From an uncultured Gammaproteobacteria bacterium (GTDB lineage: Bacteria; Patescibacteriota; Patescibacteriia; UBA1558; GWA2-36-10): a stretch of DNA of 64,000 nucleotides. Both the position numbers and the translations under genes were made by a program. Of this stretch, positions 2,563-54,037 are shown piece after piece. Every line of letters starts with the position of its first letter. Position 1 is the first letter of the stretch. Under the pieces are notes generated by a model. That model ran no database searches. It saw nothing but the letters and a program-made list of their open reading frames with translations, and was not told the origin of the DNA. The stretch covers positions 525 through 64,524 of the forward strand of contig CAYRIU010000046.1 of assembly GCA_964424615.1 (NCBI GenBank). The letters are read 5' to 3'.

Positions 2563-4236
2563 CTACAAAAGGTGCAAAGTAGTATGATCATTGCCACCGT
2601 TGTACCAATCAACAGGTAGCCAATATTTGATTTTTTTTGGATCAGCTAGCTGCTTATCATTCTTGGCATCAGTATAGCGTATAAAATACCAATTTGAGCC
2701 AGCCCAATTTGGCATGGTGTCGGTTTCTCTCCTGGCTTCACCACCACATTTTGGACAAGTAGTCTTAGCCCAATCCTCTAGCTTGGCTAATGGTGACTGG
2801 CCTTCTGGACCTGGCTTGAAATCTTTGATATCTGGCAAGACTAGTGGCAAATCTTTTTCAGATAATGGCTGCCAATCACATTTACTACAATAAACCATAG
2901 GGATAGGCTCGCCCCAATATCTTTGTCTAGAAAATATCCAATCATGTAGACGATAGTTGACTGTCACTTTGCCAACTTTATTTTTTTGTAATAAATTCAA
3001 AATTTTTATCTTAAAATCATCGACAGTCAAACCAGTAAATTGACCAGAATTTATCATCACTCTACCATTGAGTGCCGGATAAGCCTCAACCGTAAGATCT
3101 CCTCCCTCTATCACTGGCACGATAGGTAGGTCATATTTTTTGGCAAACTCCCAATCCCTCTGATCATGAGCTGGTACAGCCATGATAGCTCCAGTGCCAT
3201 AGCCCATAGTCACATAGTCAGCTACAAAAATAGGTATTTCTTCTTTGCTGACAGGATTGATGGCTTTGAGGCCTTTTAGCTCCACACCAGTTTTATCTTT
3301 GGTGTTATCTGCTCTTTCTAGATCAGATTTTTTGGCAGCTTGATTGATATAGTCCTCTACTTCTGAAAAATTACTAATCTTATCAGCCAGCTGTCTGACT
3401 AGAAGATGCTCAGGAGCTACCACCATAAAAGTCACACCAAATAATGTATCTGGACGAGTAGTAAATACTTTTAATTTTTCGCCCGAATCACTCAGTGCAA
3501 AATCAATCTCTGCACCCTCAGAGCGACCGATCCAATTTCTCTGCTGAACTTTGATCTGCTCCAAAAAATCTACTTTATCCAAATCTTCAATCAAACGATC
3601 GGCATACTTGGTAATTCTCAAGAGCCACTGCTCTTTTTCTTTTTTCTCCACTGCACTACCACAACGCTCACAATTACCACTGATCACTTCTTCGTTGGCG
3701 AGTCCTATCAAACAAGAAGGGCACCAATTTATCTTTTCTTTGGCTTTGTAAGCTAAACCATTTTTCCACATTTGGATAAAAATCCACTGTGTCCAGTGAT
3801 AATAGCTTGGATCAGTAGTCTCCAAAAATCTAGACCAATCAAAACTATAGCCAACCAATCTTAACTGACGAATGTAATTATCAATATTTTTTCTAGTGGT
3901 CTCTTGGGGTGGGATATTTTTTTTGACTGCATAGTTTTCAGCTGGCAAACCAAAAGCATCCATACCCATAGGATAAAGAACATTCTTACCCAAAAAACGC
4001 TGATAACGAGCAATCACATCCATAGCAGTATAGGAGCGCAAATGACCAGCATGCAAGCCCTCGCCAGATGGATAAGGAAATTCTACTAAACCATAAAATT
4101 TCTCAGATCCCTGATCGGCTGATAAAAAAGTATTGTTTTCTTGCCAATATTTTTGCCACTTTGACTCTATTTTACTTGGCTGATATTTTGAAAATTTACC
4201 CATAATAATGCAAAAATTATGAAATAATTCTACCAT
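2563..4236 (-). CDS. leuS: Leucyl-tRNA synthetase, N-terminal 557-aa portion, ending ...HTTLHLL at an in-frame TAG (2563-2565).
   Basis: HIGH-type motif (HAGH), CP1 editing domain, Zn-finger-like CxxC pairs. The ORF stops at TAG exactly where LeuRS normally has Tyr in HLLY. Confidence 0.85.
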   Translation of the reverse strand: MVELFHNFCIIMGKFSKYQPSKIESKWQKYWQENNTFLSADQGSEKFYGLVEFPYPSGEGLHAGHLRSYTAMDVIARYQRFLGKNVLYPMGMDAFGLPAENYAVKKNIPPQETTRKNIDNYIRQLRLVGYSFDWSRFLETTDPSYYHWTQWIFIQMWKNGLAYKAKEKINWCPSCLIGLANEEVISGNCERCGSAVEKKEKEQWLLRITKYADRLIEDLDKVDFLEQIKVQQRNWIGRSEGAEIDFALSDSGEKLKVFTTRPDTLFGVTFMVVAPEHLLVRQLADKISNFSEVEDYINQAAKKSDLERADNTKDKTGVELKGLKAINPVSKEEIPIFVADYVTMGYGTGAIMAVPAHDQRDWEFAKKYDLPIVPVIEGGDLTVEAYPALNGRVMINSGQFTGLTVDDFKIKILNLLQKNKVGKVTVNYRLHDWIFSRQRYWGEPIPMVYCSKCDWQPLSEKDLPLVLPDIKDFKPGPEGQSPLAKLEDWAKTTCPKCGGEARRETDTMPNWAGSNWYFIRYTDAKNDKQLADPKKIKYWLPVDWYNGGNDHTTLHLL

Positions 4237-4258
4237 TTAGCTTAGCAAAAATCAACTT

Positions 4259-5719
4259 ATGACTAATTCCCACTCCTCGACAAAAAGACCTGATTATGAT
4301 ATAGTAGCTATTGCTAATAGTGCCTTATCAATAAGTTATAATATTATTAGTATATTCATCAAAAAGATATTTACCAGATTGGCTATCAAAATAGCTGATT
4401 TTTTGATTTGGTCAAAAAGAAAAATGCCATTTGTTTTTCGACCATTGTTTAAACTTATTTCACTAATACTCAAAATAATTTTTTTACCTTTTGTACTTTT
4501 GATTTATAAAAATATTGTTTTGATAAAAATAAAACTAAAGAATAAAAAAATAAAGGATACTGCCTTAATAATATTTATCCAAAAATATTTAGCTGGCACT
4601 GTCATTGCTCTCATCATCATAGGTACTACTACTAGCAATATCTTTGCCCAAAACTATAGTACTGATGAATACGCCCAAAAGACACTACTCTCTACTTTGG
4701 TAAAAAATGACTCAGCTAGCTGGAGTGAAATCATAGAGGAAAAAGCGCCTGTCGCTAGAGTAGTCACTAGTCCCAACTATATTGCTGGTACTGATGTACT
4801 ACAAGAACCGCTGAGCAACAATACTGGTAATAGCAATAGTGGTGAAATTATCACCCTATCACCAGACGCCACTAGCTTGGTCATGCTCAATTCTGATGAA
4901 GATATACTGGATGTGCCTGTGCCTGGTCGCACTGAAAACATAGACTATATAGTACAAGCTGGTGATACCTTGAGTGGTATTGCTCAAAAATTTGACATCA
5001 CAGTCAACACCATACTCTGGTCAAACAATCTAACATGGAATAGCACCATAAAGCCAGGCGTCAAACTAGTCATACTACCATCCTCTGGCTTGAGCTACAC
5101 CATACAAAAAGGAGACAACTTAGCGGCTGTTGCCAAAAAATATCAAGCTGATGTTGATAAAATATTAGCCTACAACAACCTAGACAGTGTCTCTGCTATC
5201 AAAGCTGGCAATACCATATTCATCCCTGATGGCATCAAGCCAACGCAAGTTGTCTCATCTTACAAGGCACCAAGCTTGGCTAGCCAACCAAAGCCTACTG
5301 CTAATACAGCTACCTATGGCGATGATGAGTTGCCTCCAGCTAGCGATCTATCAGCCAATACAAAATTCTTGTGGCCAACACTTAGCCACAGAATCACTCA
5401 ATACTTTAGTTGGGTACATACTGGTCTAGATATCGGCGACAAAGTCGGCAACCCAATCTACGCGGCGGATGATGGCAAGGTGCAGATATCTGGCTGGAAT
5501 AGTGGCGGTTATGGTAACTATGTAATCATCAACCATGGTAATGGTCTACATACTGTCTATGGACACGCTAGTAAACTTCTAGTAAAAACTGGCGAAGTAG
5601 TCACTCGTGGACAAGTGATAGCTCTCATAGGCTCCACTGGCAGATCAACCGGCCCACACTTGCACTTGGAAGTCAGGCTCAATGGTACTAGGAAAAATCC
5701 TATTAACTACATCAAATAA
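4259..5719 (+). CDS. Membrane-anchored LysM-repeat M23-family metallopeptidase. The annotated N-terminus may be over-extended; alternative start near MPFVF.
   Basis: Two LysM-like repeats (YIVQAGDTLSGIAQKF, YTIQKGDNLAAVAKKY) plus a C-terminal M23 domain (HTGLDI...GPHLHLEV). Confidence 0.8.
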   Translation: MTNSHSSTKRPDYDIVAIANSALSISYNIISIFIKKIFTRLAIKIADFLIWSKRKMPFVFRPLFKLISLILKIIFLPFVLLIYKNIVLIKIKLKNKKIKDTALIIFIQKYLAGTVIALIIIGTTTSNIFAQNYSTDEYAQKTLLSTLVKNDSASWSEIIEEKAPVARVVTSPNYIAGTDVLQEPLSNNTGNSNSGEIITLSPDATSLVMLNSDEDILDVPVPGRTENIDYIVQAGDTLSGIAQKFDITVNTILWSNNLTWNSTIKPGVKLVILPSSGLSYTIQKGDNLAAVAKKYQADVDKILAYNNLDSVSAIKAGNTIFIPDGIKPTQVVSSYKAPSLASQPKPTANTATYGDDELPPASDLSANTKFLWPTLSHRITQYFSWVHTGLDIGDKVGNPIYAADDGKVQISGWNSGGYGNYVIINHGNGLHTVYGHASKLLVKTGEVVTRGQVIALIGSTGRSTGPHLHLEVRLNGTRKNPINYIK

Positions 5720-9946: not shown

Positions 9947-10129
9947 ATGCTACTGCGCATCACCACCCACAGCGATTTGCCTGTGTGCTACTTTCACAAC
10001 AACCGTGTCTATCAATACTATCTCAAGAAGGGCACTTATCTGTGCCGCAAAATCGTCCATCCTTTTGGAGGTGGATTCGATGACTTGATCGTGCTATACA
10101 AGATCCGTCTGCTAGCGACCCTGCACTAG
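9947..10129 (+). CDS. Hypothetical 60-aa protein in the GC-rich island.
   Basis: AAGGAG SD 6 nt upstream of the ATG at 9947; GC-rich codons; no recognisable family. Confidence 0.35.
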   Translation: MLLRITTHSDLPVCYFHNNRVYQYYLKKGTYLCRKIVHPFGGGFDDLIVLYKIRLLATLH

Positions 10130-10499
10130 CACCTGATGCTTTGATTGGCCTCAGCCACTCAGCATTGATGACGCATGCCCATCGCTACAGCCAGTTTCCC
10201 GACCAAACCGTTCACATCGAAGAAGTTGCTGATACTCTGATCGCAGAAGTTCTGCTTGCAGCGAGCTCGACAGCTGCGACCAAGCCAATCGGCAAAGTCA
10301 TCCCTATGCCTCTCAGGTCCACACCCAGATTCGCACAAGCCGGAAAAAGTATTCGCTACCAAATCAAAACCACCCAGGTGTCGACTAGACACCGCGTCCA
10401 GAGATTTCACCCAGCTGCCCGTCGAGCTTGCTGAGAAATATCAGTAGGCAAACTTCTCCTTGACCATGGCCACCGAGACTCACATCGGTGGCCCTTTCT

Positions 10500-10540
10500 T
10501 TTTCAAAAAAAGGAGACCATCCGTAGACGATCTCCTAAAA
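10500..10540 (-). terminator. Rho-independent terminator for the island gene at 10572..10946.
   Basis: Minus-strand reading GGAGATCGTCTACGGATGGTCTCC followed by TTTTTTT. Confidence 0.5.
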
Positions 10541-10571
10541 ACCAAGTTACCAAGCGAACTGATACCCTGTC

Positions 10572-10946
10572 CTAAGCTGTCTTAGCCACCAGCTCGGCAA
10601 TTGCCTGTCTAGCCACACCCTCCTTGGGCTCGATCCAAACTATGTCGCTCAGTGGCAATACCTTGAAGGTATCGTGACAACAGACGGCGATGGAGCCCCG
10701 GAATCCAGCGGCCTGCAAGGCTGCCAAAAATTTCTCACCAGTATTTGGCAAGAACCCAAAGCCACCGCCCAAGACAACCCAGTTGGGATTGATGCTGACA
10801 ATCCCGTCAACCAGAGAATCAAAATGCAGACTAAACTGCATCACCAAAAGGTGACACGGCATGACTGCTGGGTCTCCCACCTGGAGCAAAGACCGCATGT
10901 GCCTAGGATCTTTATCCAAGACAACCACGGTAGAACGAGTAGCCAT
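10572..10946 (-). CDS. Hypothetical 124-aa protein in the GC-rich island (MATRSTVVVLDKDPRH...).
   Basis: Perfect GGAGG SD 5 nt upstream of the ATG at 10946. The track ORF is longer only through a TTG start. A minus-strand terminator hairpin (GGAGA...TCTCC plus T7) follows at 10500-10540. Confidence 0.5.
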   Translation of the reverse strand: MATRSTVVVLDKDPRHMRSLLQVGDPAVMPCHLLVMQFSLHFDSLVDGIVSINPNWVVLGGGFGFLPNTGEKFLAALQAAGFRGSIAVCCHDTFKVLPLSDIVWIEPKEGVARQAIAELVAKTA

Positions 10947-11076
10947 TGGAACCTCCTGTGACAACAACTCAAACAGGTGACTCACACACTTGATAACTTG
11001 CGAAGGGAACAAAACAGACAATTATTCTAATAAAATAAATCCTGAAAGTCAATAGAAAAACAGCTTAAAAGCTGTC

Positions 11077-25116: not shown

Positions 25117-25379
25117 CCACAACAAAGAGATTATTCACTTTTGAAATTATTTGTGCTATTATTTTTCACAAGGTGAGTTTTGAGGATCAAAACATCCTCA
25201 TTTCTAAATTCTCATCCCTAAGACCATCGGTGTATAGCACCATTCATAGCCGAAAGACTTTGGACAATGCTATGCTTAAGCCGATGGTCTTTGTTTTGAA
25301 ATAAAAAAAGAGCGGCGCCTCCTACACCGAAGTGTAATGGATGGCGCCGCTTCTGGTCAGCCAGTAGCAGTGTGTGCTA

Positions 25380-25940
25380 CTAGCTGATCAACTTGCGCTT
25401 GGCGATGATGTTGTGTTCACCGCGAAACTCGAAGACCACTGCCTCCAGAATGTCCAGGGTATGGACATCGCGAAGACCGCAGAGATACGCGGCCAGAATG
25501 ATGAAGGAGCTGTGAAAGACACCAACTCCCATCTCGCCGTCCTCCATGCAGGAGAACATCTGGTGAATGGCCCCCATGGCCTCGACTTCGAAGACGTGCT
25601 GTGCATCGCAGTCGTGAGAAGCCGTGAAAGCCTCCATGACCGAAACGCCGCCAGCGATCAGATCTTCGAACTTCTCGTTGTGCAAGTGCATCAGGGCAGC
25701 ATCGCTACCCAAGCCATCGATCACGGGATGACGACAGCTCTGCGAGAAGGCCGGATTCTCGACCACCATGACCGCAGCTGTCTCGATAGTCGCCACCAGA
25801 GGCGACGTGAAAATGTGCTGCACCATCTGGTTGCGATGATGGAAGGCTCCAAAGCCATGAGCCATATCCAGGCCCATGGTGGAAATGTGCCGACCGTCCT
25901 CAGCCAGCTCGGAGTGAACGTGCAGAGTCAAGATTTTCAC
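25380..25940 (-). CDS. Hypothetical His-rich (putative metal-binding) 186-aa protein in a GC-rich cassette. GTG start with a GGAGGA SD.
   Basis: SD 5 nt upstream of the GTG start. A minus-strand terminator (AGCGGCGCC...GGCGCCGCT plus T-run) lies at 25306-25360. The overlapping plus-strand ORF 25374..25985 is judged an artefact of the high GC content. Confidence 0.45.
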   Translation of the reverse strand: MKILTLHVHSELAEDGRHISTMGLDMAHGFGAFHHRNQMVQHIFTSPLVATIETAAVMVVENPAFSQSCRHPVIDGLGSDAALMHLHNEKFEDLIAGGVSVMEAFTASHDCDAQHVFEVEAMGAIHQMFSCMEDGEMGVGVFHSSFIILAAYLCGLRDVHTLDILEAVVFEFRGEHNIIAKRKLIS

Positions 25941-26069
25941 AGAAATCCTCCGTGTTTACTGTCCATGCCCACCCTAGATTACTAGGGATCCAAGTCGTCA
26001 ATGACTCAGAATTGAGTATTATATGACATTTATGCTATTTTGTCAATACTAGAATTCAAACTCCCTTGA

Positions 26070-39552: not shown

Positions 39553-39581
39553 TTGACAAAATAGCTAAAATATGCTATTAT
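39553..39581 (+). promoter_or_regulatory. Sigma70-like promoter (TTGACA, 17 nt, TATTAT) upstream of the small-peptide array.
   Basis: Hexamer match. Confidence 0.35.
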
Positions 39582-39697
39582 TATATATTAATTGCAGTAC
39601 CTTAAAAGTAGCAAATATACAGTTATAGCGCCTAGATTAGCTAATATTCTAGCTAATTTAAGTGCTGTAACTGTAAACAAGACTCAATTCTCTATCC

Positions 39698-39710
39698 TTA
39701 CATGGTGTAA
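39698..39710 (+). promoter_or_regulatory. Palindromic operator-like site TTACATGGTGTAA upstream of peptide a. A paralogous site TTACACAATGTAA lies at 39957-39969 upstream of peptide b.
   Basis: TTACA-N3-TGTAA inverted repeats. Each is followed about 15 nt later by a conserved 20-nt leader GAGTCAGACCAAGT(A/G)CGAGG. Confidence 0.45.
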
Positions 39711-39747
39711 GAGCAAAGAAGCGAGTCAGACCAAGTACGAGGAAGAA

Positions 39748-39915
39748 ATGAAGAACATTCTCAAGGCTTCATTCCTGACCATTGGATATGTCGTGATGAG
39801 CGTCCTGACCGGAATCAAGAACGACAGCCCCATCGTCCTTGTTTTCATAGGGTCGCTAATTTTCTTTGAGGTGCGGGCGCTTCACGACAAACTCGAGCGC
39901 TTGCCCAAGAACTAG
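39748..39915 (+). CDS. Small membrane peptide a (55 aa; MKNILKASFLTIGYVVMSVLTGIKNDSPIVLVFIGSLIFFEVRALHDKLERLPKN).
   Basis: First of three tandem GC-rich cassettes with a shared leader; hydrophobic core and charged tail. Confidence 0.5.
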   Translation: MKNILKASFLTIGYVVMSVLTGIKNDSPIVLVFIGSLIFFEVRALHDKLERLPKN

Positions 39916-40007
39916 CCAGATCCTTCGCCGAGCCTAACAACTCAACTCCAATTTTCTTACACAATGTAAGGATAAAGGAGTGAGTCAGACCAAGTGCGAG
40001 GGTAAAA

Positions 40008-40094
40008 ATGTCGTGGTCAGACGTCGCCTGTCTCATCGTCGGCATCATGCTGGGGATCATCACGAGAATCATTCGGACGCGCCCCAGGGACTAA
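40008..40094 (+). CDS. Small membrane peptide b (28 aa; MSWSDVACLIVGIMLGIITRIIRTRPRD).
   Basis: Single TM helix plus Arg-rich C-terminus. Preceded by an operator-like IR and the conserved leader. Type I toxin-like architecture. Confidence 0.5.
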   Translation: MSWSDVACLIVGIMLGIITRIIRTRPRD

Positions 40095-40161
40095 CCCTTT
40101 CCTTCGCCGCTATTCGCGAGTAACCAGCCAGCTCACCGACCAACAAAAGTGCGAGAGAGCA

Positions 40162-40260
40162 ATGTCGCTGACAGATTTCATCTGTCTCCTCTGCGGGACA
40201 GTTCTGGGGTTCGTCATTGGCCACACACTCAAGAACCGCCGCAAGAACCGCCGGAGGTAA
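40162..40260 (+). CDS. Small membrane peptide c (32 aa; MSLTDFICLLCGTVLGFVIGHTLKNRRKNRRR).
   Basis: Single TM helix plus poly-basic tail. Leader AAGTGCGAGAGAG is related to the a and b leaders. Confidence 0.5.
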   Translation: MSLTDFICLLCGTVLGFVIGHTLKNRRKNRRR

Positions 40261-40297
40261 CAACCTCGCTCGTCCATTGCGCACACCTGGCGCATCA

Positions 40298-40345
40298 GAC
40301 CTCGGTAGCATCACACATATGTGAGTGCCGAGGTCTTTTTCTTTT
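40298..40345 (+). terminator. Rho-independent terminator closing the peptide array (GACCTCGG...CCGAGGTC plus TTTTTCTTTTT).
   Basis: 8-bp GC stem plus T-run. Confidence 0.6.
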
Positions 40346-40396
40346 TGTCAAAAACTCTAGCTACATTTTTGTGTCGTTTTATGATAATATGTATGT

Positions 40397-41215
40397 ATGG
40401 AAAAAAATTCTTTAGCTAAATACAAATTATATTTAAAAAGTAAAGACTTGAAGCCCAGCACCATCAAAAATTATAGCTGGCATGTGGGGCAATTTTTGCT
40501 ATGGTCTGAAAATAAGTCCGCCAGAGGCGGGTCCGCCTCTGGCGGAAAAATAACCGCTCCCCTTTTAAAAAAATATAAAGAATTTTTACTAGCCAAACAA
40601 AAAAATATTGGTAGTATCAATCTACGCCTTATCATCATAAATAACTACCTACACTTTATTGGTATCAGATACTCTTTTGAGCTCCTGACTGAGCACAAAG
40701 ATAGACTAGCTGCTCTCACACCTTTGCAATTACAAAATTTTTTGGACCAACCCTTGAAAAAAAATAACCCTGTTGGTCACAGAGACAAAGCTTTATTAGA
40801 AATTTTATATGCTAGCGGTCTCAAGGTCAGCGACCTAGTCAATCTCCAAAAAAACCAAGTTGATTTTTTGAGTCGCGAAATAATACTAGACAAAAAACAC
40901 ATTACTCTACCACCCTATGCTCTGCACTATCTAGAAAAATATATTAATTTCAGAAAAGATAAAAGTCCTTGGCTATTTATAAACTTTGATCGCAGTAAAA
41001 AAGCTGGCGAAAAACCACTTTCTGTCCGCTCAGTCGAAAGAATGGTAGAAAAATATGCCTTGGCACTACGACCAAGACTAAAAATCACTCCCCAAATACT
41101 GCGCAACACCCTAGCCTACAATCTCAAAAGCCAAGGCGTGACTGGCTCTGGACTCAAAGAAGCTCTACACTTCAAAACAAAAGTAGGCGCCGGTAATTAT
41201 CTAAACAGATTATAA
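40397..41215 (+). CDS. Tyrosine site-specific recombinase (XerC/XerD/integrase family), with a GC-palindrome-encoded insertion SARGGSASGG in the N-terminal domain.
   Basis: Core-binding-like N-terminus; GLKVSDLVNLQ patch; C-terminal R...LRNT...H...Y arrangement. 272 aa. Confidence 0.65.
   Translation: MEKNSLAKYKLYLKSKDLKPSTIKNYSWHVGQFLLWSENKSARGGSASGGKITAPLLKKYKEFLLAKQKNIGSINLRLIIINNYLHFIGIRYSFELLTEHKDRLAALTPLQLQNFLDQPLKKNNPVGHRDKALLEILYASGLKVSDLVNLQKNQVDFLSREIILDKKHITLPPYALHYLEKYINFRKDKSPWLFINFDRSKKAGEKPLSVRSVERMVEKYALALRPRLKITPQILRNTLAYNLKSQGVTGSGLKEALHFKTKVGAGNYLNRL
40517..40546 (+). repeat. Perfect 14-bp-stem GC palindrome (TCCGCCAGAGGCGG-GT-CCGCCTCTGGCGGA) inserted in frame within the recombinase ORF.
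   Basis: Self-complementary 30-mer of the CCGCCA-N-TGGCGG family. It encodes SARGGSASGG without breaking the frame. Confidence 0.65.
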
Positions 41216-52892: not shown

Positions 52893-52961
52893 ATTGACAA
52901 AGTCCGCAAAGAATCACACCACACAGGACGCCCGTCCTTCACAACTGTCTAGGAGGCAAAC

Positions 52962-54026
52962 ATGGCTAACTCCGAAGAAATCATGCTGCTCTGCGGCGGT
53001 GGTGATACTAATCACCTGGCTCAAAAAATCATCGAAGTAGTCAACAACCGACGCATCGGCCAAAGAGAACTCAAGCTCTCACACACTGACTTCGGCTGGT
53101 TTGCCGACGAAGAACCAGATCATGCCTTTGACGAATGGGACAAAATTCGTAACAAGCATATCGTTTTGTTCTTGAGCACACACAGCCCAGAACTAGCCAT
53201 GGAGCTCTTGATCCTCATCCGAGCGATCAAAAAAAGATACGGTGCCAAGAGCCTGACCGTGGTCCAGCCCTTCATGGCTTTCCGACGCCAAGACCACCCA
53301 GAGATCAAAGAAGAGTTTGACATGAACCTCTGGTTCATTGAGAACTTGAAAGCCAATGGCGCTGACCGTGTCATACTCTGCGACATTCACTCCGAGCAGA
53401 CGCTAAAAAACTGCGTTGAAGTCGGCCTAGAAGCTCACCACGTCAAACCTACTCCACTCTACGCTGCTGCCCTGAAAGAACCAATTGCTCAGGCCAAGGA
53501 GCTCGGTAAGCATACCAAGATCCTGTCGCCAGACAAGGGTTCTCTACTTCGTGCTATTGCTCTAGCCAAGATCCTCAGTGTGCCGGTGTTGCTATCTCTC
53601 AAAAAAAGAAGCGAGACCGGCAACATTGTCACCAATGTCCCACCGACACCGTCCGATCTCGAGCTGATCGCAGCTATGGAGCAAAAGCACGGTATCAAGA
53701 TCGAGCTCATGAGTGAAGAAATGGTCCGAGATGCCCACATCATCATCCGTGAGGATGAGCTCGACACTGGCGGCACCGCAGCTGACACCTGTCGTGATCT
53801 GCTCCGTGCTGGAGCCTACCAAGGCATCTTGGTCGTGACACACATGAAGTGCTCTCCAGGCTGGAAACGCAAGGTCGGTCGTCGCCGGACCAGTCCTTTC
53901 ACTAGAGTAATTGCCGGTGATACCATCAATCGCTCTTACGAAGACCAGACCGGTGGTCTGGTGGTCAATGTCAGTGTGGCACCAGTCATTGCCGAGAAGT
54001 TGACCGAAATCCTAGACGCCCTGTGA
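52962..54026 (+). CDS. Divergent ribose-phosphate pyrophosphokinase (PRPP synthetase, Prs) family protein in a GC-rich cassette.
   Basis: DIHSEQ matches Prs DLHAEQ. REDELDTGGT matches VDDMIDTGGT. LAQKI is the N-terminal motif. About 50% GC, strong SD, own terminator. Confidence 0.55.
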   Translation: MANSEEIMLLCGGGDTNHLAQKIIEVVNNRRIGQRELKLSHTDFGWFADEEPDHAFDEWDKIRNKHIVLFLSTHSPELAMELLILIRAIKKRYGAKSLTVVQPFMAFRRQDHPEIKEEFDMNLWFIENLKANGADRVILCDIHSEQTLKNCVEVGLEAHHVKPTPLYAAALKEPIAQAKELGKHTKILSPDKGSLLRAIALAKILSVPVLLSLKKRSETGNIVTNVPPTPSDLELIAAMEQKHGIKIELMSEEMVRDAHIIIREDELDTGGTAADTCRDLLRAGAYQGILVVTHMKCSPGWKRKVGRRRTSPFTRVIAGDTINRSYEDQTGGLVVNVSVAPVIAEKLTEILDAL

Positions 54027-54037
54027 TCCACTAGGAC

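Follow-up and report, generated by a model that had tools for sequence, protein, structure and literature searches.

Between rpsO and an xer-like gene, an uncultured Patescibacteria (CPR) bacterium carries a fast-changing gap that holds three tiny membrane-peptide genes. What these genes are, how they are expressed, and whether the neighbouring recombinase homologue has any part in their presence was examined in a 64-kb stretch of DNA (hereafter the window) and in related loci, which are designated by L numbers. A sequence-only reading had described the site as a GC-rich tandem array of hydrophobic peptides with operator-like palindromes, and had likened it to type I toxin-antitoxin loci or to the content of a small integrative cassette.

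Three small genes in one operon

The GC content of positions 39700-40340 was 52.0%, which agrees with the earlier estimate of about 52% for the block, whereas the accompanying figure of about 33% for the genome was too low, as the 64-kb window has 38.3% GC. A promoter scan identified a near-consensus sigma-70 promoter on the plus strand at 39553-39581 (TTGACA, 17-nt spacer, TATTAT, TG extended -10). It scored 11/12, is divergent from the rpsO promoter and is invariant in relatives L008, L016 and L022; being near consensus, it implies high constitutive transcription. On the same strand, an intrinsic terminator was located at 40297-40346, where a fold of -23.8 kcal/mol is followed by the U-tract UUUUUCUUUUU. 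This terminator, correctly called strong in the sequence-only reading, works in one direction only and is conserved in L008, L016 and L017. With one promoter and one terminator, both conserved in relatives, ORFs a, b and c appear to form a single operon, and the promoter would drive a transcript of about 750 nt.

The three tandem plus-strand mini-ORFs, of 55, 28 and 32 amino acids, were recovered at 39748-39915 (ORF a), 40008-40094 (ORF b) and 40162-40260 (ORF c). Their GC contents at codon positions 1/2/3 were 0.48/0.27/0.73, 0.41/0.48/0.83 and 0.48/0.42/0.76, respectively; GC3 was thus 0.73-0.83 in the a, b and c frames, against 0.33-0.43 in pnp, rpsO, xer, cyt-b5 and purD. Because the antisense ORFs lacked such periodicity, the three ORFs are, on sequence grounds, judged to be coding. 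For ORF a, a family alignment and database searches were drawn on as well, and the codon-position signature together with conservation of the family at the orthologous locus indicated that the mini-ORFs are real, tandemly duplicated hydrophobic-peptide genes, as had been supposed. The earlier prediction of a single transmembrane helix and a cationic C terminus for each peptide held for ORFs b and c, in which one helix is followed by the basic tails RIIRTRPRD and KNRRKNRRR, respectively, but not for ORF a, which has two hydrophobic helices and a C terminus of mixed charge. The maximum 15-residue hydropathy reached 2.4-2.5 for a and b, and the hydrophobic core of c was read from the sequence. 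The ORFs would therefore encode three small inner-membrane proteins, which should insert with their basic C termini in the cytoplasm.

ORFs b and c are known from this strain only, so their coding status rests on codon periodicity, mutual paralogy and in-frame collinearity with a. Repeats D9, D5 and D2 in ORF b are collinear with ORF a, and the two genes end in frame at PKN-stop and PRD-stop. Within the window, b and c were reciprocal best matches. ORF b corresponds to helix 2 and the tail of ORF a, ORF c is a paralogue of b, and both are truncated in-frame paralogues of a. As single-helix derivatives, they would have arisen from the second helix and basic tail of a through tandem duplication and internal deletion.

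Hairpins and a leader module on the transcript

Two kinds of stem-loop were predicted on the plus strand. Hairpin 1 (39618-39675, inverted repeat I2) lies in the 5′ UTR and has a nearly perfect stem of about 25-27 bp with a predicted pairing probability of 0.95. Its consensus fold, computed from three sequences, comprised 27 pairs, of which five show compensatory double changes; the G·U pairs in this fold are possible on the plus strand only. Upstream-extended ORFs (107 aa in the window and 189 aa in L016) read through this 5′ UTR; they were rejected because the stretch carries frame-breaking indels in L008 and shows RNA-type covariation.

Hairpin 2 occurs in two copies, the first at 39681-39727 (tip CTTACA-UGG-UGUAAG, base GACUC/GAGUC) and the second between cistrons a and b at 39940-39986. 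Over 32 nt, copy 2 and the left half of copy 1 show 88% complementarity (inverted repeat I1), and a long-range duplex between the copies was predicted with a probability of about 0.97. The TTACA-N3-TGTAA palindromes noticed earlier before a and b were found as CTTACA-N3-TGTAAG, a sequence that the window contains at 39697 and 39956 only; each proved to be the tip of a longer, imperfect hairpin of about 47 nt. The apical stem was kept in 6/6 copies. Changes in it were one-sided and left G·U pairs that can form on the plus strand only (TGTGAG in L016; TTGCG/TGTAA in the second copy of L022, an orthologous copy with G·U substitutions), and the lower stem covaried. The covariation of the hairpins is drawn from three to six closely related sequences. 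Since variant copies keep their pairing through G·U, the palindromes behave as plus-strand RNA hairpins rather than as the DNA operators that the term operator-like had suggested. An attC-like or dif-like interpretation of the palindromes was also considered and rejected, as they have a 3-nt centre and lie inside the transcript before the cistrons, not at the block edges.

Hairpin 2 is joined to a leader with a Shine-Dalgarno sequence (SD), GAGTCAGACCAAGTACGAGG at 39723-39742 for ORF a and its repeat GAGTCAGACCAAGTGCGAGG at 39982-40001 for ORF b. In agreement with the near-identical 20-nt leader described earlier, the pattern GAGTCAGACCAAGTRCGAGG occurred exactly twice in the 64 kb (39723 and 39982), where none is expected by chance even with three mismatches, and the same leader was seen in L008, L016 and L022. 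The leader of ORF c, AAGTGCGAGAGAG at 40147-40159, was likewise found to be degenerate, as read from the sequence. SDs had been called canonical throughout, which is true of a and b (GAGG) but not of c, whose SD is weaker (GAGAG). The motif reported on the 3′ side of both a and b, TCCTTCGCCG, was present at 39921-39930 and 40100-40109 as part of the 27-nt repeat D2, which in ORF a spans the last codons, and it also follows the L008 ORF.

The hairpin-plus-SD unit is not tied to one type of gene. In L016 it precedes a truncated 149-aa CPR hypothetical protein, soluble and unrelated, and in L022 an unrelated second ORF, which suggests that stem-loop and SD constitute a portable module. A search of the genome collection with the leader pattern gave one match, in coding-like sequence of a GC-rich archaeon, which was judged to be chance. 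Preceding each of the first two cistrons, the module may act on RNA, with an exposed ribosome-binding site just downstream of a stem that serves in processing or stabilisation (RNase III-type or 5′-protective). Mutual pairing of the two hairpin 2 copies is also predicted to be possible in this strain and would enclose cistron a.

A hypervariable islet beside a conserved Xer-like gene

ORF a is the founder type of an orphan two-helix family of 54-72 aa, which had six matches among 5.8 billion proteins; a profile search of 1.84 billion cluster representatives added no further members or remote relatives. Members turned up in no place other than the rpsO-xer spacer, and in no organisms other than close relatives from one Komeilibacteria-like subclade. 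Its gene adjoins rpsO and/or the xer-like gene in 6/6 relatives whose contig shows a flanking gene, and in a seventh relative, L015, the xer-like gene lies downstream of it and an S15-like ORF directly precedes it. The helix-2 motif LGLAIFFQ is common to the family despite synonymous differences. An exact-protein look-up of the 55-aa ORF a returned no record, indicating that gene callers had never called it.

The sequence-only reading had seen no standard annotated family in the block, and none was found in Pfam, NCBIfam, PADLOC, PHROGs or Rfam. In Pfam, a and b had no match at E up to 1, and c gave three chance-level matches to unrelated families. PADLOC returned nothing meaningful for the block, and PHROGs no significant family, the sole match being a chance-level one of unknown function (b, E 0.054). 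Rfam yielded only tRNAs over the whole window at the gathering threshold; over the block, with E up to 10, it gave nothing beyond matches to eukaryotic miRNAs and snoRNAs at chance level. Viral contigs contained no match to the family profile, the L016 cargo or the leader pattern, and a literature search gave nothing relevant on Komeilibacteria.

Comparison of orthologous sites, including the empty-site comparison proposed at the outset, revealed that the block is absent from more distant relatives; in L012 and L014, the spacer is only 172-200 bp. Other relatives hold one to four different ORFs in the gap. Between L008 and L022, identity was 96% in the 5′ UTR, 48% over codons 1-25 and 91% over codons 26-55, and the points at which alleles cease to be homologous fall within the ORF or precisely on start or stop codons rather than at the hairpins. 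Four metagenome contigs (L001-L004), independent of one another, were 100% identical over 966 bp and in the same orientation. In L005, 20 differences were counted in 558 nt, all but one of them G-to-T or G-to-C, with an identical xer; because all lay within about 210 nt of the contig end, they were rejected as polymorphism and ascribed to assembly or sequencing error. With cargo that differs among close relatives, sharply mosaic alleles and foreign, GC3-rich codon usage, the locus is a hypervariable accessory islet. We also observed that a GC3 of 0.7-0.8 persists in a lineage-restricted family of a 38% GC genome, alongside sharp intragenic mosaicism; recombination-driven GC bias or a foreign gene pool possibly lies behind both.

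The xer-like gene (40397-41215, plus strand, 272 aa) lies outside the operon and has a conserved promoter region of its own. Its product matched Phage_integrase (PF00589, E 5.8e-16) and aligned to XerD and to an XerC-like structure, so an adjacent tyrosine recombinase homologue is indeed present. In its catalytic set, however, Lys replaces Arg-I ('GLK' vs 'GLR') and Gln replaces His-II ('QILRN' vs 'HxLRH'), and both replacements were invariant in 13/13 aligned homologues. The protein scored 96 bits against a 220-bit cut-off with the XerA/integron-integrase model and fell far under the NCBIfam cut-offs for XerA, XerC and XerD. It fits the Phage_integrase fold but not the canonical XerC/XerD catalytic set. 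The gene lies beside rpsO also in relatives without the block; a metagenome scan with the recombinase as query returned three loci only. As far as sequence comparison can tell, it is a conserved chromosomal gene independent of the block. Because the recombinase is retained irrespective of the block and two catalytic positions are occupied by Lys and Gln throughout its family, the small integrative cassette suggested earlier is unlikely.

Competing explanations and known systems

The explanation that we regard as probable is that the locus encodes accessory membrane-active small proteins under RNA-level control, expressed from a single operon in a hypervariable islet. A doubtful though reasoned alternative is a tandem type I toxin-antitoxin array, in which the products of a, b and c would act as membrane toxins, their translation repressed by small antisense RNAs that target the leaders. 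All three peptides are hydrophobic and shorter than 60 aa, and b and c, with 28-32 aa, one helix and a basic C-terminal cluster, have a shape that Ldr, PepA1 and BsrG-type toxins resemble. The genes are tandemly duplicated, strain-specific and intergenic, and their mRNA is highly structured (z -9.4); its predicted fold leaves the SDs and start codons of a and b mostly paired. Scanning of 39590-40350, however, found no minus-strand promoter of at least 9/12, and on the minus strand no convincing terminator, only one weak terminator-like site; the operon terminator is unidirectional, and the near-consensus promoter implies high constitutive transcription. Pfam holds models for several type I toxin families, yet no toxin-family match was obtained there at E up to 1, nor any in Rfam. 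That the same module also precedes an unrelated soluble protein in a relative makes the leader unlike a toxin-specific antisense-RNA target, contrary to what had been proposed, and a literature search found no paper linking type I toxin-antitoxin systems with Patescibacteria. The least credible possibility is that the block is a structured non-coding RNA or carries real minus-strand genes, the plus-strand ORFs being accidental. It would account for a GC-rich block in an AT-rich genome, for the good folding of the minus strand (z -5.3) as well as the plus strand, and for the minus-strand ORFs of 75 and 81 aa that gene callers annotated here and in L008. Nevertheless, three-base GC periodicity is limited to the plus-strand a, b and c frames, the 75-aa minus-strand ORF is flat (0.49/0.49/0.51), and all that the minus-strand 'proteins' of the window and of L008 have in common is the palindrome read in antisense. 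These overlapping ORFs are hence not conserved coding frames. Moreover, Rfam gave no match, and the plus-strand protein family is conserved across divergent DNA.

Explanations that give the recombinase or a phage a role fare little better. An integron-like or Xer-exploiting cassette array, with hairpins as recombination sites at which the neighbouring recombinase inserts or exchanges ORF cassettes, is very improbable. Repeated imperfect-palindrome modules do lie between small, same-strand, promoterless ORFs with foreign codons beside a tyrosine recombinase homologue, and the ORF behind the module varies among relatives. Against this, the recombinase is at the same place in relatives without the block and belongs to the Xer-like family with two replaced catalytic residues and subthreshold XerA, XerC and XerD scores; alleles break at positions other than the hairpins; and the leader pattern is absent from viral contigs, its sole match in the genome collection being chance. 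Neither an R''/R' pair (RYYYAAC ... GTTRRRY) nor an Xer-type site (6-8-bp spacer) was seen on reading of the sequences. At 39931, GCCTAAC stands alone with no GTTRRRY partner, and it was not conserved in the orthologous L022 spacer, and no dif-like site (two arms of about 11 bp, 6-8-bp spacer) was present at the empty sites of L012 and L014. Nor does the 272-aa protein have the full RKHRHY set, the IntI-specific insertion and the length of about 320 aa that an IntI-type integrase requires. There is even less to recommend a phase-variable segment, in which the recombinase would flip the 242 bp containing ORF a between 32-bp inverted repeats at 39681-39712 and 39955-39986. The arms are 88% complementary, and the recombinase homologue is 400 bp downstream, but a duplicated hairpin yields such an inverted repeat automatically, the assembled contigs L001-L004 are all in one orientation, L008 and L016 have one hairpin copy and cannot invert, and the recombinase family has lost two catalytic residues. 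Just as slim is the chance of a class II holin or pinholin-like lysis gene in a phage remnant. Two helices, a length of 54-72 aa and a charged C terminus in the a family would suit a holin, and one family member matched Phage_holin_3_6, very weakly (E 0.28); however, a nearby endolysin or other phage gene is absent, no significant PHROG family and no viral relatives were found, and the locus is fixed between rpsO and xer.

Accessory membrane-active proteins under RNA-level control remain our preferred explanation, and their role may be in some conflict (toxin-like, exclusion or immunity) rather than in housekeeping. It is the variability of the locus and its codon usage, and these only, that point to such a role; many harmless small membrane proteins have the same composition. 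A quite unlikely further reading is that the module is a portable expression or exchange signal for a CPR cassette-like gene pool, in which small, fast-evolving GC3-rich ORFs are swapped behind a fixed promoter, perhaps with the help of the adjacent non-canonical (Lys/Gln) Xer-like protein, or, in a milder version, that the locus is the first type I toxin-antitoxin family of Patescibacteria. If true, the exchange-signal version would amount to an integron-analogous system in this phylum, where to our knowledge none has been described. Independently of this, the analysis brings to light a genuine family of very small membrane proteins, hitherto unannotated, in an uncultured CPR lineage, at a locus that automatic gene callers mis-annotate, either with the antisense ORFs or with the versions extended through the 5′ UTR. 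Fast-evolving accessory small ORFs in such reduced genomes could be sought by means of the conserved frame of promoter, hairpin, SD and terminator, and if the peptides are toxic or protective, they would offer a first handle on membrane-level conflict systems in Patescibacteria.

Among known systems, tandem type I toxin-antitoxin loci (Ldr/Rdl, Ibs/Sib and Zor/Orz of E. coli; TxpA/RatA and BsrG/SR4 of Bacillus) resemble this block in that their peptides are very small and hydrophobic and carry a C-terminal basic cluster, and also in their tandem duplication, conserved 5′ leaders, strain-specific intergenic site and long structured mRNA leader. In those loci, each copy is its own module, whereas here three ORFs share one promoter and one terminator; the block also differs in having no detectable antisense or divergent small-RNA gene, no similarity to known toxin families, and a leader that in a relative serves an unrelated soluble protein. 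Chromosomal integron arrays, such as the Vibrio cholerae repeats, are similar in that imperfect-palindrome repeats separate small same-strand ORFs, mostly without known relatives and with foreign codons, near a tyrosine recombinase gene, and in that their content varies between strains. Unlike them, this block has no attC R''/R' boxes, its allele breakpoints are not at repeats, and its recombinase, which is also conserved where the array is missing, shows no IntI features and lacks two catalytic residues. Self-contained promoter-to-terminator units of atypical GC between conserved core genes are likewise known as phage 'morons' and flexible genomic islets, and in relatives of this strain the same gap holds one to three such units; the present block differs in lying outside any phage context and in having a cargo family limited to one locus and lineage. 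For the hairpins, the closest likeness is to the RNase III stem-loops in the early mRNA of phage T7 and to comparable processing or stabilising hairpins of polycistronic transcripts, which are imperfect intercistronic stem-loops of about 20 bp that stand directly before the next Shine-Dalgarno sequence and recur along the transcript. The T7 stem-loops are phage structures that are processed, whereas the hairpins described here are predicted, lie in a CPR chromosomal islet and conserve the sequence of their apical stem.

Coding frames and transcription signals

As the sequence-only reading had described, three plus-strand small ORFs, a (39748-39915, 55 aa), b (40008-40094, 28 aa), and c (40162-40260, 32 aa), were found in the spacer between rpsO and an Xer-like gene. 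GC contents at codon positions 1/2/3 were 0.48/0.27/0.73 for a, 0.41/0.48/0.83 for b, and 0.48/0.42/0.76 for c; the GC3 of the genes around the block was 0.33-0.43. The minus-strand frames, whose conservation as coding frames would have counted against the mini-ORFs, did not behave as such: an annotated 75-aa minus-strand ORF had flat codon-position GC (0.49/0.49/0.51), and the "proteins" read from the minus strand in the window and in the relative L008 had nothing in common beyond the antisense reading of the palindrome. ORFs a, b, and c are, as judged from their sequences, coding. Public gene calls err at this locus by running ORFs upstream through the structured 5′ UTR (107 aa at 39592-39915; 189 aa at 616-1185 of the relative L016), by placing genes of 75 and 81 aa on the antisense strand (in the window at 39845-40072, minus strand), and by missing the 28-aa and 32-aa genes b and c entirely.

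In agreement with the claim that the mini-ORFs belong to no standard family, no meaningful match was obtained in Pfam, NCBIfam, PADLOC, or PHROGs. Canonical Shine-Dalgarno (SD) sequences and one transmembrane helix per peptide had also been described; the former did not hold for c, whose SD is weak, nor the latter for a, which has two hydrophobic segments. The GC contrast stood for 39700-40340 (52.0% GC), but the window has 38.3% GC rather than 33%.

A near-consensus promoter (39553-39581; TTGACA, 17 nt, TATTAT, with TG) was unchanged in L008, L016, and another relative, L022. The strong terminator reported at the array end (40297-40346; a hairpin of -23.8 kcal/mol, then a U-tract) is the sole one and follows c, and the gaps between cistrons held no promoter-like site. 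On these predicted signals, a, b, and c form one operon.

A candidate polymorphism in the near-identical metagenome contig L005 (1-210, equivalent to 39843-40053) was rejected, as 19 of its 20 mismatches were G-to-T or G-to-C and they clustered at one end. These mismatches are an assembly or sequencing artifact, mistakable for polymorphism, in a Logan-assembled contig that is otherwise identical. Further GC-rich islands (50-56% GC) occur in the 38% GC window at 10100-11050, 25370-25990, and 52960-54030; one lies between tRNA-Ser and tRNA-Leu with ambiguous ORFs on both strands, one carries ORFs of 203 and 186 aa that overlap on opposite strands, and one a 354-aa ORF that is ribose-phosphate pyrophosphokinase-like by eye. 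They could represent additional foreign or accessory insertions.

RNA hairpins within the block

The 20-nt leader GAGTCAGACCAAGTRCGAGG recurred as described at 39723 and 39982 and at no other site in 64 kb, even with up to three mismatches; no site is expected there by chance. The motif TCCTTCGCCG was likewise present after a and b, where it ends a 27-nt repeat, and the palindrome CTTACA-N3-TGTAAG occurred at 39697 and 39956 only. Both palindromes are the tips of ~47-nt hairpins (hairpin 2; 39681-39727 and 39940-39986). At this tip, TTACA-N3-TGTAA, the apical stem was still paired in all six copies examined, and its three substitutions were all one-sided, each yielding a plus-strand G·U pair (TGTGAG in L016, and TTGCG opposite TGTAA in the second copy of L022); the lower stem showed covariation. 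In hairpin 1 of the 5′ UTR (39618-39675), 5 of the 27 predicted pairs had compensatory double changes among three sequences, and several pairs were G·U, for which the opposite strand would have A·C mismatches. Because such asymmetric changes would be intolerable for a DNA operator, the palindromes are better read as RNA hairpins than as the operator-like sites first proposed. In this strain, pairing between copy 1 (left half) and copy 2 (right half) could also give a 32-bp duplex around cistron a (predicted probability ~0.97).

The hairpin-plus-SD module also precedes a 149-aa soluble protein in L016, equivalent to positions 57-195 in a hypothetical protein (195 aa) of other CPR bacteria, and a second copy in L022 precedes an unrelated ORF (MPSKYYD...). 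The module is portable.

A variable spacer beside a conserved Xer-like gene

The block is flanked by pnp and rpsO (minus strand) and then by the Xer-like, cytochrome b5-like, and GARS-domain (purD-like) genes, and the order pnp-rpsO-[spacer]-xer-cyt-b5 was kept in relatives. The rpsO-xer spacer is ~960 bp in the window. Empty-site comparison found the block missing in relatives with short spacers, namely L012 (172 bp; xer 61% identical) and L014 (~200 bp; xer 51% identical), and closer relatives had spacers of 750-2080 bp with differing contents.

Relatives of ORF a (54-72 aa) were found in L008, L009, L015, L017, L019, L020, and L022, between rpsO and xer wherever the flanking genes are visible, each with a strong SD. 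All have in common a second helix, (L/I)G(L/S)(A/L)IFF(Q/E), with synonymous codon differences. A profile search returned only 6 proteins out of 5.8 billion, and no further members emerged when 1.84 billion representatives were searched exhaustively with HMMER. The direct repeats D1, D9, D5, and D2 are collinear in units a and b while their spacing falls from 259 to 220, 203, and 179 nt; unit b is therefore an internally deleted unit a. What the two ORFs share, in frame in each, is helix 2 and the terminal codons, PKN-stop for a and PRD-stop for b. Within the window, b and c are mutual best matches, with MS.(S/T)D..CL..G..LG in common, and L020 also has tandem pairs of a-type genes.

Between L008 and L022, identity was 96% in the 5′ UTR; within the a-type gene it was 48% for codons 1-25 and 91% for codons 26-55, a shift that marks a sharp breakpoint inside the gene. 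The L019 gap (3400-5060) holds three separate promoter-gene-terminator units, one encoding a 147-aa protein with a Cys-rich N terminus together with an a-type protein of 57 aa, another an acidic protein of 80 aa that L015 also has, and the third a protein of 101 aa; scans of this cargo against Pfam and PHROGs gave no known-family match. All cargo examined was GC3-rich (0.64-0.78). Assorted GC-rich palindromic mini-elements, such as ctgttaaat...atttaacag and gtcattgcgagg...cgctcgcaatgac, lie just upstream of relatives' xer (L009 4941-4995; L017 553-607; L018 135-190; L008 4748-4840; L016 1245-1365) and look like miniature transposable elements. Small repeats, too, appear to land in this gap.

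The Xer-like gene (40397-41215, plus strand) matches Phage_integrase, and its product, which scores far under the curated XerA, XerC, and XerD cut-offs, can be aligned with XerD and with an XerC-like structure. Homologues occur in Komeilibacteria, Parcubacteria, and other Patescibacteria, and the family (P0008-P0085) is conserved beside rpsO in the first two. In 13 of 13 aligned homologues, Lys replaces the first catalytic Arg (GLK) and Gln the first His (QILR); the family may not be an active recombinase. A conserved sequence of its own lies upstream of the gene, which is kept where the block is absent (L012, L014) and is therefore a lineage-wide chromosomal gene rather than the block's integrase. 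Its presence in blockless relatives and the Lys and Gln at two catalytic positions count against the small integrative cassette suggested earlier.

A weak match (E 2.8e-5) was further obtained between the family and the integrase-like portion of a 401-aa chain, labeled RaiA, in the P. gingivalis ribosome structure 9i5v. Within the window's Xer-like ORF, a perfect GC-rich palindrome, CCGCCAGAGGCGG-GT-CCGCCTCTGGCGG (40518-40545), encodes in frame ten extra residues, SARGGSASGG (272 versus 262 aa). L015, L019, and L020 have it within xer too; L008, with a 262-aa xer, carries a near-identical palindrome in the intergenic spacer instead. The element is reminiscent of the palindromic elements of Rickettsia, whose insertions into genes are in frame.

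Interpretation of the block

The block, which lies in a hypervariable islet, is a real small-protein operon that had escaped annotation; the family is new, but the kind of system is one already known. The composition of the peptides would also fit a type I toxin-antitoxin system, with the leader as antisense-RNA target, but the three ORFs have one promoter in common, the sequence scan found neither an antisense promoter nor a credible antisense terminator, known toxin and antitoxin families (Pfam, Rfam) gave no match, and a relative uses the leader for non-toxin cargo; we consider such a system unlikely. The operator, integrative-cassette, and toxin-antitoxin parts of the first interpretation are unsupported or contradicted.

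For the small-protein operon, we propose that a strongly transcribed polycistronic mRNA would have a long hairpin in its 5′ region and, ahead of the ribosome-binding site in both a and b, a stem-loop, and that its translation would yield three membrane peptides, one with two helices and two with a single helix, whose basic tails would lie in the cytoplasm. Given the variability, mosaicism, and foreign codon usage, its function is probably accessory and conflict-type, at the membrane. The stems would act as processing or stabilizing elements, much as RNase III sites do between the early cistrons of T7.
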